A DNA stretch of 64,000 nt from Escherichia coli (GCF_050920415.1 NZ_CP169309.1); one strand, 5' to 3'. Positions 11,839 through 34,349 are shown, numbered from the stretch's first letter. Program-made: numbers and translations. The notes: a model not told the origin generated them from the letters alone.

Positions 11839-12004
11839 TCGCTAAATAATAGAGCAACCTTTAATAATCTTCTGCTGAATAAAGATTGTCTCATATATTA
11901 ATTTTATGAGATTTTTTAGGATTATATCAAAGAGAAGAAAAGAACTTATTAAGCTAGAATAGCCACAGGTGCTTGAGACTGTTTGTCTCAGGTATTCACC
12001 GAAA

Positions 12005-12065
12005 GGCAGACAGAGAAAAGCCCCACCTGACTATAAATCAAAGTGAGGCCCCTCTATGCATAGAC
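12005..12065 (-). ncRNA. sokA: putative SokA antisense RNA of the hokA type I toxin-antitoxin locus
   Basis: Minus-strand candidate promoter (TTGATT, 17-bp spacer, TAACCT) reading antisense across the upstream in-frame ATG of the hokA ORF, followed by an imperfect hairpin plus U-run; ends inferred, not measured. Confidence 0.3.
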
Positions 12066-12115
12066 ACCATAAGGTTAGCCTCTTACTCGTTGGAAATCAA
12101 CACAGGAGGCTGGGA

Positions 12116-12268
12116 ATGCCGCAGAAATATAGATTACTTTCTTTAATAGTGATTTGTTTCACGCTTTTATTTTTCACCTGGATGATAAGAGATTCACTGT
12201 GTGAATTGCATATTAAACAGGAGAATTATGAGCTGGCGGCGTTTTTAGCCTGCAAATTGAAAGAGTAA
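12116..12268 (+). CDS. hokA: Hok-family small toxic membrane peptide HokA
   Basis: 50-aa ORF MPQKYRLLSLIVICFTLLFFTWMIRDSLCELHIKQENYELAAFLACKLKE preceded by Shine-Dalgarno AGGAGG; Hok family signature. Confidence 0.85.
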   Translation: MPQKYRLLSLIVICFTLLFFTWMIRDSLCELHIKQENYELAAFLACKLKE

Positions 12269-12302: not shown

Positions 12303-12456
12303 ACGGCGTTGCGCATTCTCATTGCACCCAAATTTATTCTTCACAAAAATAATAATAGATTTTATTACGCGAACGATTATTTATTTCCTGAATAAACAAA
12401 TAAAAAAATCCCCGCCATTTGGCAGGGATCTTAGATTCTGTGCTTTTAAGCAGAGA

Positions 12457-12669
12457 TTACAGGCTGGTTACGTTACCAGCTGCCGGGCCTTTAGCGCCGC
12501 TTTCGATGGTGAAGGACACTTTCTGACCTTCGTCCAGAGATTTGTAACCATCGTTCTGGATAGCAGAGAAGTGTACGAACACGTCTTTAGAACCATCGTC
12601 AGGAGTGATGAAGCCGAAGCCTTTGTCAGCGTTGAACCATTTTACGATACCAGTCATTTTACCGGACAT
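12457..12669 (-). CDS. cspA: major cold-shock protein CspA
   Basis: 70-aa [73 protein letters not shown]; cold-shock domain with RNP motifs. Confidence 0.97.
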
Positions 12670-12828
12670 AGTGTATTACCTTTAATAATTAATTGTGCCT
12701 TTCGGCGATATGGCGTGCTTTACAGATTTTGAAGCGTTAAAGGAAATGCACACTACGAGGGGTATCAACGATAACTCTTGAAGGGACTTGCCTTACTACA
12801 CTGCTTTAATGGTCTGTACGTCAAACCG
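12670..12828 (-). promoter_or_regulatory. long cspA 5' untranslated leader (cold-box containing)
   Basis: About 159 nt between the cspA start codon and a sequence whose reverse complement begins ACGGTTTGACGTACAGACC, matching the known cspA transcript 5' end from memory. Confidence 0.6.
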
Positions 12829-12950
12829 TTGAAGTGCATTAAGCCACGCATTGGTGGGTGATGCAACAATTATTTTTCATATTTATGATTAATCGGTTGG
12901 AAAACGGTCCTGTCATCAGGACCGTAAACAGCAATAAAGTGGATAAAAGT

Positions 12951-23934: not shown

Positions 23935-24025
23935 GAGGCCTGCTGACTTTCTCGCCGATCAAAAGGCATTTTGCTATTAAGGGATTGACGAGGGCGTATC
24001 TGCGCAGTAAGATGCGCCCCGCATT

Positions 24026-24102
<77 letters not shown>

Positions 24103-24108
24103 AATTCG

Positions 24109-24137
24109 AAAAGCCTGCTCAGCGAGCAGGCTTTTTT
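24109..24137 (+). terminator. rho-independent terminator after tRNA-Pro
   Basis: AGCCTGCTC-AGCG-AGCAGGCT hairpin followed by TTTTTT. Confidence 0.7.
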
Positions 24138-24152
24138 GCATTTGAAGCCCAT

Positions 24153-24270
24153 GAGGATGAGAACCTCCGGGGGCGGGGAGGTTCGACTCGAGCGAAGCGA
24201 GAGAACGTTGCGCCAGCAACGGCCCGCAGGGCGAGCCACGAAGTGGCGAGTAATCCTCTATCACCGACCA
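24153..24270 (+). repeat. tRNA-Pro 3'-end-containing repeat unit 1 (T-arm start, about 63-nt insert, then the last 19 nt of tRNA-Pro)
   Basis: Begins with GGAGGTTCGA (tRNA T-stem) and ends AATCCTCTATCACCGACCA, identical to the proK 3' end; followed by its own terminator at about 24277..24304. Confidence 0.6.
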
Positions 24271-24276
24271 ATTTAG

Positions 24277-24304
24277 AAAAACCAGCCTACGGGCTGGTTT
24301 TTTG
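24277..24304 (+). terminator. rho-independent terminator after repeat unit 1
   Basis: CCAGCC-TACG-GGCTGG hairpin followed by TTTTTT. Confidence 0.6.
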
Positions 24305-24320
24305 CTTTCTGCGGCCTGAA

Positions 24321-24424
24321 GAGGATGAGAACTTCCGGGGGCAGGGAGGTTCGACTCCAGCAAAGCGAGAGAACGTTGTGGCAGCAACGGCCCGCAGTGG
24401 CGAGTAATCCTCTGGCACCGACCA
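24321..24424 (+). repeat. tRNA-Pro 3'-end-containing repeat unit 2 (diverged copy of unit 1 with a 14-nt deletion)
   Basis: About 85 percent identical to unit 1; ends AATCCTCTGGCACCGACCA (two mismatches to the proK 3' end). Confidence 0.6.
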
Positions 24425-24433
24425 AATCTGAAC

Positions 24434-24519
24434 GTAGGCCTGATAAGACGCGTCAGCGCCGCATCAGGCAACGGCACCGCACTTATTGTCGGATGCGGCG
24501 TGAACGCCTTATCTGACCG
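24434..24519. repeat. REP/BIME element (two inverted REP palindromes)
   Basis: GTAGGCCTGATAAGACGCGTCAGCGCCGCATCAGGCA and CGGATGCGGCGTGAACGCCTTATC: canonical REP consensus. Confidence 0.8.
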
Positions 24520-26732: not shown

Positions 26733-26831
<99 letters not shown>

Positions 26832-32385: not shown

Positions 32386-32585
32386 ATTTCACTACCAGTC
32401 TGGAGTCAGCCCGGATATGAACTGCAACTATTGCAAATAAAGAAATTAAGCTGGAAGGCATCACGCAATGAGGAAGATTGCCGGGTGCTGACGGTAAAAA
32501 GCAATCGTAAAATCAGCGGCAAGCCGGAAAGGTTCCGGTGAGGCGCAATGTTGCGGGGGCTTAATCCCTGGTGGCATTGGTTGCT

Positions 32586-32654
32586 GGAGAGAGAAAACCC
32601 CCGCACGTTGCAGATATTCACCTGACAACATCACGGGGGCTAATCTTGAACCTA
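32586..32654 (-). ncRNA. rdlD: Rdl antisense RNA, copy 1 (approximate ends)
   Basis: Minus-strand reading gives a GC-stem hairpin (CCCCCG...CGGGGG) followed by UUUUCUCUC; -10-like TATTCT upstream on minus strand; ends inferred from the Rdl family. Confidence 0.45.
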
Positions 32655-32705
32655 GACCACTCAAGAATAGCCGCGAAACGTTGTCATTACAACACAGGCG
32701 GCTAT

Positions 32706-32813
32706 ATGACGCTCGCAGAACTGGGCATGGCCTTCTGGCATGATTTAGCGGCTCCGGTCATTGCTGGCATTCTTGCCAGTCTGATCGTGAACTGGCTGAA
32801 CAAGCGGAAGTAA
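32706..32813 (+). CDS. ldrD: Ldr type I toxin peptide, copy 1 (35 aa)
   Basis: MTLAELGMAFWHDLAAPVIAGILASLIVNWLNKRK; Ldr family small hydrophobic toxin. Confidence 0.85.
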   Translation: MTLAELGMAFWHDLAAPVIAGILASLIVNWLNKRK

Positions 32814-33071
32814 CGTGTCAGACGGGCGTCAGGCTGCCGTAATGGCAATTTGCGCCCGGACCAGGCCGCAGGGATAAAACTCTGCGGCCTTTTTCGTAAG
32901 AAAAATGCAACGGTTGCAAGCGGATAATATTCTGCGGAATGCGCAGCACAGAGTGAAGAAGTGATGGATTCTGGAACAGAAAAACAGTCGTAGAATCAGC
33001 GGCAAGCCGGAAGGGTTCCGGTGAGGCGCAATGTTGCGGGGGCTTTATCCCTGGTGGCATTGGTTGCTGGA

Positions 33072-33140
33072 GAGAGAAAACCCCCGCACGTTGCAGGTAT
33101 GCACCTGACAACATCACGGGGGCCATTCTTGCATCCAAAC
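33072..33140 (-). ncRNA. rdlD: Rdl antisense RNA, copy 2 (approximate ends)
   Basis: Same structure as copy 1; minus-strand promoter-like TTGTAA, 17-bp spacer, TATTCT. Confidence 0.45.
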
Positions 33141-33188
33141 AATACAAGAATAGCCGCGAAACGTTGTCATTACAACAGAGGCGGCTAT

Positions 33189-33296
33189 ATGACGCTCGCA
33201 GAACTGGGCATGGCCTTCTGGCATGATTTAGCGGCTCCGGTCATTGCTGGCATTCTTGCCAGTCTGATCGTGAACTGGCTGAACAAGCGGAAGTAA
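33189..33296 (+). CDS. ldrD: Ldr type I toxin peptide, copy 2 (35 aa)
   Basis: MTLAELGMAFWHDLAAPVIAGILASLIVNWLNKRK. Confidence 0.85.
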   Translation: MTLAELGMAFWHDLAAPVIAGILASLIVNWLNKRK

Positions 33297-33555
33297 CGTG
33301 TCAGACGGGCGTCAGGCTGCCGTAATGGCAATTTGCGCCCGGACCAGGCCGCAGGGATAAAACTCTGCGGCCTTTTTCGTAAGAAAAATGCAACGGTTGC
33401 AAGCGGATAATATTCTGCGGAATGCGCAGCACAGAGTGAAGAAGTGATGGATTTCGACGAACAAAAATGGCCGTAGAATCAGCGGCAAGCCGGAAGGGTT
33501 CCGGTGAGGCGCAATGTTGCGGGGGGCTTTATCCCTGGTGGCATTGGTTGCTGGA

Positions 33556-33624
33556 GAGAGAAAACCCCCGCACGTTGCAGGTATGCACCTGACAACACCA
33601 CGGGGGCCATTCTTGCATCTAGAC
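33556..33624 (-). ncRNA. rdlD: Rdl antisense RNA, copy 3 (approximate ends)
   Basis: Same structure as copies 1-2. Confidence 0.45.
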
Positions 33625-33672
33625 CATTCAAGAATAGCCGCGAAACGTTGTCATTACAACAGAGGCGGCTAT

Positions 33673-33780
33673 ATGACGCTCGCAGAGCTGGGCATGGCCT
33701 TCTGGCATGATTTAGCGGCTCCGGTCATTGCTGGCATTCTTGCCAGCATGATCGTGAACTGGCTGAACAAGCGGAAGTAA
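33673..33780 (+). CDS. ldrD: Ldr type I toxin peptide, copy 3 (35 aa)
   Basis: MTLAELGMAFWHDLAAPVIAGILASMIVNWLNKRK (L26M relative to copies 1-2). Confidence 0.85.
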   Translation: MTLAELGMAFWHDLAAPVIAGILASMIVNWLNKRK

Positions 33781-34038
33781 CGTGTCAGACGGGCGTCAGG
33801 CTGCCGTAATGGCAATTTGCGCCCGGATCAGGCCGCAGGGATAAAACTCTGCGGCCTTTTTCGTAAGAAAAATGCAACGGTTGCAAGCGGATAATATTCT
33901 GCGGAATGCGCAGCACAGAGTGAAGAAGTGACGGATTCCGGAACAGAAAAACAGTCGTAGAATTAGCGGCAAGCCGGAAGGGTTCCGGTGAGGCGCAATG
34001 TTGCGGGGGCTTTATCCCTGGTGGCATTGGTTGCTGGA

Positions 34039-34107
34039 GAGAGAAAACCCCCGCACGTTGCAGGTATGCACCTGACAACATCACGGGGGCTAATCTTGAA
34101 CCCAAAC
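34039..34107 (-). ncRNA. rdlD: Rdl antisense RNA, copy 4 (approximate ends)
   Basis: Same structure as copies 1-3. Confidence 0.45.
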
Positions 34108-34155
34108 AACTCAAGAATAGCCGCGAAACGTTGTCATTACAACAGAGGCGGCTAT

Positions 34156-34263
34156 ATGACGCTCGCAGAACTGGGCATGGCCTTCTGGCATGATTTAGCG
34201 GCTCCGGTCATTGCTGGCATTCTTGCCAGTCTGATCGTGAACTCGCTGAATAAGTGGAAGTAA
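34156..34263 (+). CDS. ldrD: Ldr type I toxin peptide, copy 4 (35 aa, variant C-terminus)
   Basis: MTLAELGMAFWHDLAAPVIAGILASLIVNSLNKWK (W30S and R34W relative to copies 1-2). Confidence 0.8.
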   Translation: MTLAELGMAFWHDLAAPVIAGILASLIVNSLNKWK

Positions 34264-34349
34264 CGTGTCATGCGGGCGTCAGGCTGCCGTAATGGCAATT
34301 TGCGCCCGGATCAGGCCGCAGGGGTGAAACTCTGCGGCCTTTTTCGTTC

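Follow-up and report, generated by a model that had tools for sequence, protein, structure and literature searches.

The two sequence units that follow the tRNA-Pro(CGG) gene proK in a 64,000-nt stretch of Escherichia coli DNA (NZ_CP169309.1; hereafter, the window) are very probably tandem copies of the RtT element, that is, of the "repeat of tyrT" family, in a tRNA-Pro-linked version. We scanned the window against Rfam 15 at gathering thresholds, and both units exceeded the gathering score of the RtT family (RF00391, 45 bits) over the full model (positions 1–130), on the + strand only: unit 1 at 24137–24270 with 100.4 bits (E = 4 × 10−21), and unit 2, a decaying copy, at 24304–24424 with 63.4 bits (E = 5.8 × 10−12). 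The original prediction, made from the sequence of the window, had described the units as either remnants of integration or excision, or a tRNA-derived structured RNA, and had proposed a covariance-model search as a check. That search places both units in RF00391, and the second description is essentially right: the units are members of this family, their ends come from the T-arm and acceptor of the neighbouring tRNA, and they fold with compensatory changes.

RtT units in the eptB–dppA interval

The region of the window is 100% identical to that of E. coli strain MFDS1022581, for which RefSeq/PGAP gives the order eptB, tRNA-Pro, RtT sRNA, RtT sRNA, dppA. PGAP-annotated K-12 derivatives have one RtT at proK, and in the curated MG1655 record nothing is annotated in the homologous interval. 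Since pipelines already annotate RtT, the observation is correct but already known, and the case of the window is one of correct labelling: a routinely annotated RtT array, neither a new element nor an integration scar. The original prediction held that it would fail if the units belonged to an annotated repeat family unrelated to tRNA; the family is indeed annotated, but it is linked to tRNA. The PGAP note "processed from tyrT transcript" is narrower than the family, whose members in Enterobacterales are found downstream of genes for tRNA-Tyr, tRNA-Pro, tRNA-Lys and tRNA-Arg. The tyrT copies align to the units of the window, with a body identity of only ~80%.

The family reportedly goes back to work on tyrT from 1978 to 1991, by Egan and Landy in 1978 and by Bosl and Kersten in 1991. 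Published accounts describe RtT as an RNA released from the transcript of tyrT and of many other tRNA operons, propose that it modulates the stringent response, and mention RtT homologues seen on Northern blots in A. pleuropneumoniae; citing papers credit the discrete RNA release at tyrT to Bosl and Kersten (1991). A covariation analysis of the RtT family is already in print (PMC7657543). Our literature search found no paper specific to the proK copies and no report of their expression, and the family-wide observations given below (cognate tails, fold) may in part stand in older papers.

The tRNA-Pro(CGG) gene itself occupies 24026–24102 on the + strand, as called by ARAGORN, by the Rfam tRNA model (60.7 bits) and by the RefSeq annotation of the identical locus. 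Its last 19 nt (AATCCTCTATCACCGACCA, 24084–24102) are reiterated downstream. The units start 35 and 202 nt past the tRNA on the same strand, and the tRNA 3' end recurs in register, its three copies lying at 24084–24102, 24252–24270 and 24406–24424. The tail of unit 1 matches the tRNA 3' end at 19/19 positions and that of unit 2 at 17/19, with GG replacing AT at 24414–24415. The units are 92% identical over 77 nt (24153–24229 vs. 24321–24397) at a spacing of 168 nt. Two related units after an intact tRNA-Pro and its terminator, each ending in the tRNA 3' end, had been predicted as such, and the predicted lengths of 118 and 104 nt hold if counted from GAGGATGAG (24153 and 24321, respectively) to CCA.

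The definition of the unit needs amendment. The T-stem and the tail were correctly recognized, but the repeat period is 168 bp and comprises the tRNA 3' end, trailer, terminator and RtT body, and an inverted copy of the T-arm had gone undescribed. This inverted copy (GAGGATGAGAACCTCC) lies 5' of GGAGGTTCGA in each unit, the latter being present at 24177–24186 in unit 1 and at 24345–24354 in unit 2; the segment 24153–24169 and the tRNA T-arm at 24074–24090 form an inverted repeat with 88% complementarity over 17 nt. A non-tRNA insert is present as predicted, although its lengths are 65 and 51 nt on recount, not 63 and 49 nt. The reduced length of unit 2 stems from the loss of 14 nt between two GGCGAG repeats.

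Each unit is preceded by a trailer with an intrinsic-terminator hairpin. The first occupies 24103–24139 (+), with a stem at 24108–24120/24124–24136 and a T-run at 24132–24137; it contains a perfect 12-nt inverted repeat (24109–24120/24124–24135) followed by TTTTTT, and its RNA folds at −19.6 kcal/mol (z = −5.0). The second, at 24271–24306 (+), was called by folding (stem 24276–24287/24292–24303), and its hairpin and U-run (24276–24303) fold at −18.5 kcal/mol (z = −5.6), which bears out the predicted second terminator after unit 1. Copy 2 has diverged from copy 1, and in some strains the copy-2 variant lies directly 3' of tRNA-Pro. A simple consensus terminator scan listed neither array hairpin, a miss that is due to the rules of the scan, because folding shows both hairpins to be strong. 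Upstream of proK, a consensus scan called a promoter-like site by its consensus match alone (TTGACG, 17-nt spacer, TAAGAT; 23985–24013, +; 9/12), and the same scan found no promoter-like site within the array. With a strong terminator hairpin before each unit and no internal promoter-like site, expression of the proK units may be very low; their transcription would depend on read-through of the terminators. From such read-through transcripts the tRNA 3'-maturation nucleases would be expected to release each unit as a discrete RNA, as has been reported at tyrT, because tail and trailer copy the 3' processing site of the tRNA.

The array ends at a BIME-like REP pair at 24437–24518 (Rfam naRNA4, RF02564; 69.6 bits on the − strand and 50.3 bits on the + strand; an inverted repeat), in agreement with the REP elements predicted after unit 2, and the same REP closes every proK allele that we examined. 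Within the units the REP-type model (RF02564) has no match; it matches only at 24437–24518, downstream of them. ARAGORN found no tRNA in the window besides proK and no tRNA-like gene within either unit, and the sole match of the Rfam tRNA model is 24026–24099, the units containing sequence of the T-arm and the acceptor 3' strand only. Small open reading frames in the array, such as a 46-aa arginine-rich one at 24136–24276, are mechanical calls that nothing supports.

Elsewhere in the window, four tandem units of 483–484 bp, 96% identical, lie at 32555–34304, each with a match to rdlD (RF01813, 82–90 bits; 32592–34107, − strand), and form an array of the ldr/rdl type I toxin-antitoxin. K-12 presumably has a single ldrD/rdlD at this locus, and the four-copy array may be a strain-specific amplification. 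A sok antitoxin RNA of the hok/sok type (RF01794, 112.8 bits) adjoins the cspA thermoregulator 5' UTR (RF01766, 493 bits), the two matches lying at 11967–12118 (+) and 12402–12830 (−), respectively, and the sRNA ES036 (CssrF; RF02751) matches at 26754–26796 (−) with 44.8 bits vs. a gathering score of 37.6.

Fold of the units and compensatory changes

Folded alone, unit 1 has a minimum free energy of −50.9 kcal/mol (z = −2.9) and forms all five helices of the family model, on the + strand: P1 (24153–24158/24253–24258), P2 (24161–24168/24177–24184), P3 (24187–24203), P4 (24206–24211/24216–24221) and P5 (24235–24239/24243–24247). Unit 2 folds at −37.3 kcal/mol (z = −1.28) and lacks P5, its 14-nt loss taking away the 5' half of that hairpin; the P5 hairpin is likewise lost in two other units of the sample, L065 and L109. 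The P4 hairpin, CGTTGC-GCCA-GCAACG in unit 1 (24206–24221), reads CGTTGT-GGCA-GCAACG in unit 2. The hairpin is thus kept, as had been predicted, but the wobble is a one-sided change from C-G to U-G and not a two-sided compensatory one. In this fold, both halves of the split direct T-arm copy pair with the 5' inverted copy to give P1 and P2, a conserved domain of ~65 nt (P3, P4, P5) emerges at the position of the T-loop, and the last 7–12 nt, ending in CCA, are single-stranded.

We aligned 42 distinct long-form units. RNAalifold recovered P1, part of P2, and P4 from these. Under the P1–P5 model, 90.1% of the cells were paired, 107 cells carried changes on both sides (vs. 36.7 in shuffles), and the covariation score was 0.211, compared to 0.102 in shuffled alignments and at most 0.114 with the partners slid. 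A Rfam-like structure, with TTCG and the P2 loop paired with the GCCCG-AGGGCG region, was also tried and fell below the P1–P5 model (87.0% paired, 39 double-change cells, score 0.135). The Rfam consensus structure omits P2 and P5, both of which are well supported here. Compensatory changes were found at 4/5 pairs of P5, which has no relation to the tRNA sequence, and P1 showed them as well. Because P5 is unrelated to the tRNA and yet compensatory, it is the best evidence of selection on the fold of an RNA (or of a single strand); P1 and P2 covary with the identity of the tRNA, and their covariation may simply follow from the T-arm being copied in both orientations, with no selection on pairing. 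Counted over the five helices as a test of strand, G-U and A-C cells were similar in number (41 vs. 38), and we infer the RNA strand from the orientation of the tRNA and from the Rfam matches, which are on the + strand only.

The inverted T-arm copy also bears on a reading in which the array acts in cis on the proK transcript or on neighbouring genes. The inverted copy might pair with the T-arm of tRNA-Pro in read-through precursors and change their processing, or the terminators, structured units and REPs might together insulate dppA from transcription of proK. In favour of action in cis are the 88% complementarity of 24153–24169 to the tRNA T-arm, the Rfam class of RtT (Cis-reg), and the position of the array, with a highly expressed tRNA gene on one side and the dppA promoter region on the other. 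However, the inverted copy has nearer and better partners inside its own unit (P1 and P2), which are those used in the minimum free energy structure, and the reading has no experimental support. Strains with 0.x, 1.x and 2 units all exist (see the next section), so that a dosage-critical role in cis is unlikely. We regard action in cis as improbable.

Copy number at proK and cognate tails across Enterobacterales

The prediction had also called for a comparison of copy number at proK across E. coli. In our survey of 5426 complete genomes, 5422 matched the region, and the number of units varies between strains: at least one full proK-type unit was present in 2678/5426 genomes. The alleles that we examined form an in-register series of 0.x, 1.x or 2 units. 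In the 0.x allele, the tRNA and a terminator of either variant (L005 and L128) are followed by a 42-nt stump of a unit that is fused to the REP; the 1.x allele additionally has a full unit and a further terminator between the first terminator and the stump. In the 1.x allele of K-12 (L002), trailer and terminator are duplicated without change, and L129, also 1.x, has the variant terminator. A further allele, L130, has a single unit joined to half a REP; its tail is the TGG variant, as in unit 2 of the window, and ~290 genomes have partial matches of this kind. The allele of the window has two full units. Its variant trailer and terminator (24271–24306) were found in 160/5426 genomes, in some of them under the tRNA-Pro feature, and its exact unit 2 with the 14-nt deletion was found in 7/5426 genomes; this terminal copy is rare and has partly degraded.

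Comparison of the REP junctions of L002, L005, L128 and L129 to window positions 24431–24437 shows that most alleles cut the terminal unit after GGAGGTTCGACTCG and join the REP directly (ACGTAGGCC), and that the window retains the full terminal unit, with the same REP joined after AATCTGA. This suggests that the common truncated terminal form may have arisen by deletion with short homology. More generally, unequal recombination or slippage between the 168-bp modules probably makes the arrays expand, contract and recombine, and the alleles with 0.x, 1.x and 2 units are best accounted for by such unequal recombination, slippage and small deletions among tandem modules. Because about half of the E. 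coli genomes have no full unit and unit 2 is degraded, any function at proK is dispensable. The polymorphism in copy number at proK supplies natural strains with 0, 1 and 2 units in which the function of RtT could be tested.

These frequencies fit a reading of the proK units as evolutionary relics, RtT-derived DNA that is essentially unexpressed, since transcription would end at the terminators, and is drifting to loss; the units would then be family members by descent with no activity at this locus. In addition to the genomes without a full unit, many of which have just the 42-nt stump fused to the REP, this reading accords with the two strong hairpin and U-run terminators that precede the units, with the lack of an internal promoter-like site in the consensus scan, with the state of unit 2 (half of P5 gone, two tail mismatches, z = −1.28), and with the blank at this locus in the curated MG1655 record. 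However, the order Pro-tRNA, T-run terminator, long-form RtT unit persists in Escherichia albertii, Citrobacter, Pluralibacter, Pseudescherichia, Serratia, Budvicia, Gilliamella and Tatumella. The Pro-linked P5 varies and yet stays paired (GCCAC/GTGGC, GCCGC/GCGGC, GTCAC/GTGAC and GCATC/GATGC), and the tails remain identical to the tRNA while the bodies diverge to ~83% identity. The maintained arrangement, P5 and tails point to purifying selection somewhere in the history of the family. That the proK units are relics is a serious possibility, although not the most probable one.

We further searched a single genome of each species for the core hairpin motif CGTTGC-N4-5-GCAACGRCCCG, which yielded at least 120 loci, and assigned tRNAs by ARAGORN and tail matching, accepting tRNA genes on the same strand up to 1.2 kb upstream. 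In Enterobacterales, at least 81 cores had such a tRNA, of the types Tyr(GTA), Pro(CGG, TGG, GGG), Lys(TTT) and Arg(ACG). Among the matches listed, the tail differed from the last 19 nt of the upstream tRNA by 0–2 mismatches in 73/81 cases (0 mismatches in 36, 1 in 31 and 2 in 6), and the identity to the tRNA ended at 18–19 nt in nearly all units, which places a single junction position in the T-loop (TTCGA|ATCC). Where the tRNA tail departed from the consensus of its type, the RtT tail had the same substitution in 5/5 cases among the matches listed. These cases are L096 (Citrobacter youngae), L027, L028, L036 and L060, the comparison being with other species or with the second gene copy of the same operon; gene conversion, recent duplication or selection may each be the cause. 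The final 19 nt of tRNA-Tyr form the end of the tyrT copies, and a partial copy in the lysT–valT spacer ends in the last 18 nt of tRNA-Lys. Core matches outside Enterobacterales were mostly in high-GC genomes without a nearby tRNA, and we took them as chance.

The units come in two forms. In the long forms, found with Tyr, Pro and some Lys tRNAs, an inverted copy of tRNA positions ~49–69 is followed by a short loop, a direct copy of the T-stem 5' strand with TTCGA, the ~65-nt insert and the 19 terminal nt of the tRNA. The short forms (Arg and most Lys) are reduced to the tail-pairing strand, the core hairpin and the sequence downstream of the hairpin. Between tandem tRNA-Arg(ACG) genes in Enterobacter sp. 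Bisph1 (L017, region 709–1700) and Brenneria roseae (L106, 3444–4200), we observed short RtT-like modules made up of a P1 strand, the core hairpin and an exact tRNA-Arg tail; the short forms of Arg operons go unannotated because they fall below the RF00391 gathering score. In the E. coli lysT–valT region (L006, 1398–1566), an RtT match of 60.6 bits covers tRNA-Lys and the spacer, with no RtT annotated by PGAP; in this short form the genuine T-arm of tRNA-Lys replaces the 5' part of the RtT model. In Marinobacterium lutimaris (L031), two core matches 177 nt apart (reverse complement, 3431 and 3608) lie behind tRNA-Arg(CCG), with only the first 9 nt of the tail matching the tRNA, and may be a distant relative of the family outside Enterobacterales. 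At tyrT in Citrobacter and Kosakonia (L015, L029 and L102), an RtT-like core lies ~170–180 nt upstream of the first tRNA-Tyr, with a tail in which only TCCTT is preserved before the sequence diverges; this core is apparently a degenerate unit preceding the tRNA genes.

Body identity among the matches listed was 0.83 for units of the same tRNA type in different genomes, 0.775 for units of different types in the same genome, and 0.771 for the background. Exchange between tRNA types within a genome was considered and rejected, the same-genome identity being close to background. The bodies group by tRNA type and not by genome, and the tRNA-specific lineages are therefore old, with no sign of recent movement between loci. 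The same ~65-nt module is joined at a fixed T-loop junction to the 3' fragments of at least six tRNA types, is preceded in long forms by an inverted copy of the T-arm of that tRNA, and has a tail that follows the substitutions of the upstream tRNA. These features are the basis of a reading in which RtT is more than a duplicated trailer: it might have a tRNA-specific function, serving its own tRNA, or the enzymes that recognize the T-arm and acceptor end, as a decoy or antisense partner, or it might be created and maintained by tRNA-templated copying or conversion. With regard to this reading, the grouping of bodies by tRNA type (0.83 vs. 0.775) argues against recent mobility, and we think the reading unlikely to hold.

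tRNA 3' ends are common integration targets, and the threefold direct repetition of the tRNA 3' end at proK is what might be expected if the repeats were attachment-site scars of mobile elements. The other evidence speaks against such scars. The eptB–dppA interval contains tRNA-Pro, RtT, terminators and REPs, with no further annotated gene and no integrase, foreign gene or foreign DNA; in at least 20 genera, the tRNA ends at Tyr, Pro, Lys and Arg loci enclose the same body of ~65–110 nt; the tRNA-identical segment is 18–19 nt nearly everywhere, with one junction position over six tRNA types; the fold of the body is conserved with compensatory changes; ARAGORN called no tRNA-like gene in the units; and the array repeats in register with its terminator included. 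The integration or excision remnants of the original prediction are accordingly dropped as extremely improbable, in favour of an RtT array.

Comparison with known systems

The closest system is RtT at tyrT (rttR/rtT). Like the proK units, the tyrT units lie downstream of the tRNA in the same orientation, are tandem and variable in copy number (1–4 units at tyrT), each end in the last ~19 nt of the tRNA, and share the core AGCGAAGCGAGA, the CGTTGC/GCAACG hairpin, GCCCG-AGGGCGAG and CGAGTAATCC. The proK units differ in that the tail and both T-stem-derived helices are of tRNA-Pro and not tRNA-Tyr sequence, and in a period of 168 bp vs. 178 bp at tyrT. An intrinsic terminator hairpin precedes each unit in the proK arrays examined, whereas the tyrT spacers (L003) have no hairpin with a T-run. 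Discrete RNA release is reported at tyrT and predicted for the proK copies.

A regulatory RNA derived from a tRNA spacer, 3'ETS-leuZ, was reportedly described by Lalaouna et al. in 2015. Like RtT, it is a by-product of a tRNA operon transcript that is freed in tRNA maturation and is located immediately downstream of a tRNA 3' end. 3'ETS-leuZ acts as an Hfq-dependent sponge on defined sRNA partners, and we know of no partner or target of RtT. Unlike RtT, 3'ETS-leuZ is not a repeat family and has no copy of the tRNA 3' end at its own end.

The attL and attR sites of islands and prophages resemble the proK array in being direct repeats of the 3' part of a tRNA downstream of the intact tRNA; the array differs from them in having no integrase or island, in the conserved structured element between its repeats, and in the constant length and junction over six tRNA types. 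REP and BIME elements are, like RtT, short structured intergenic repeats of enterobacteria, and a REP pair adjoins the array; RtT units, unlike these, have no REP consensus and are linked to tRNA genes in a fixed orientation with tRNA-specific ends.
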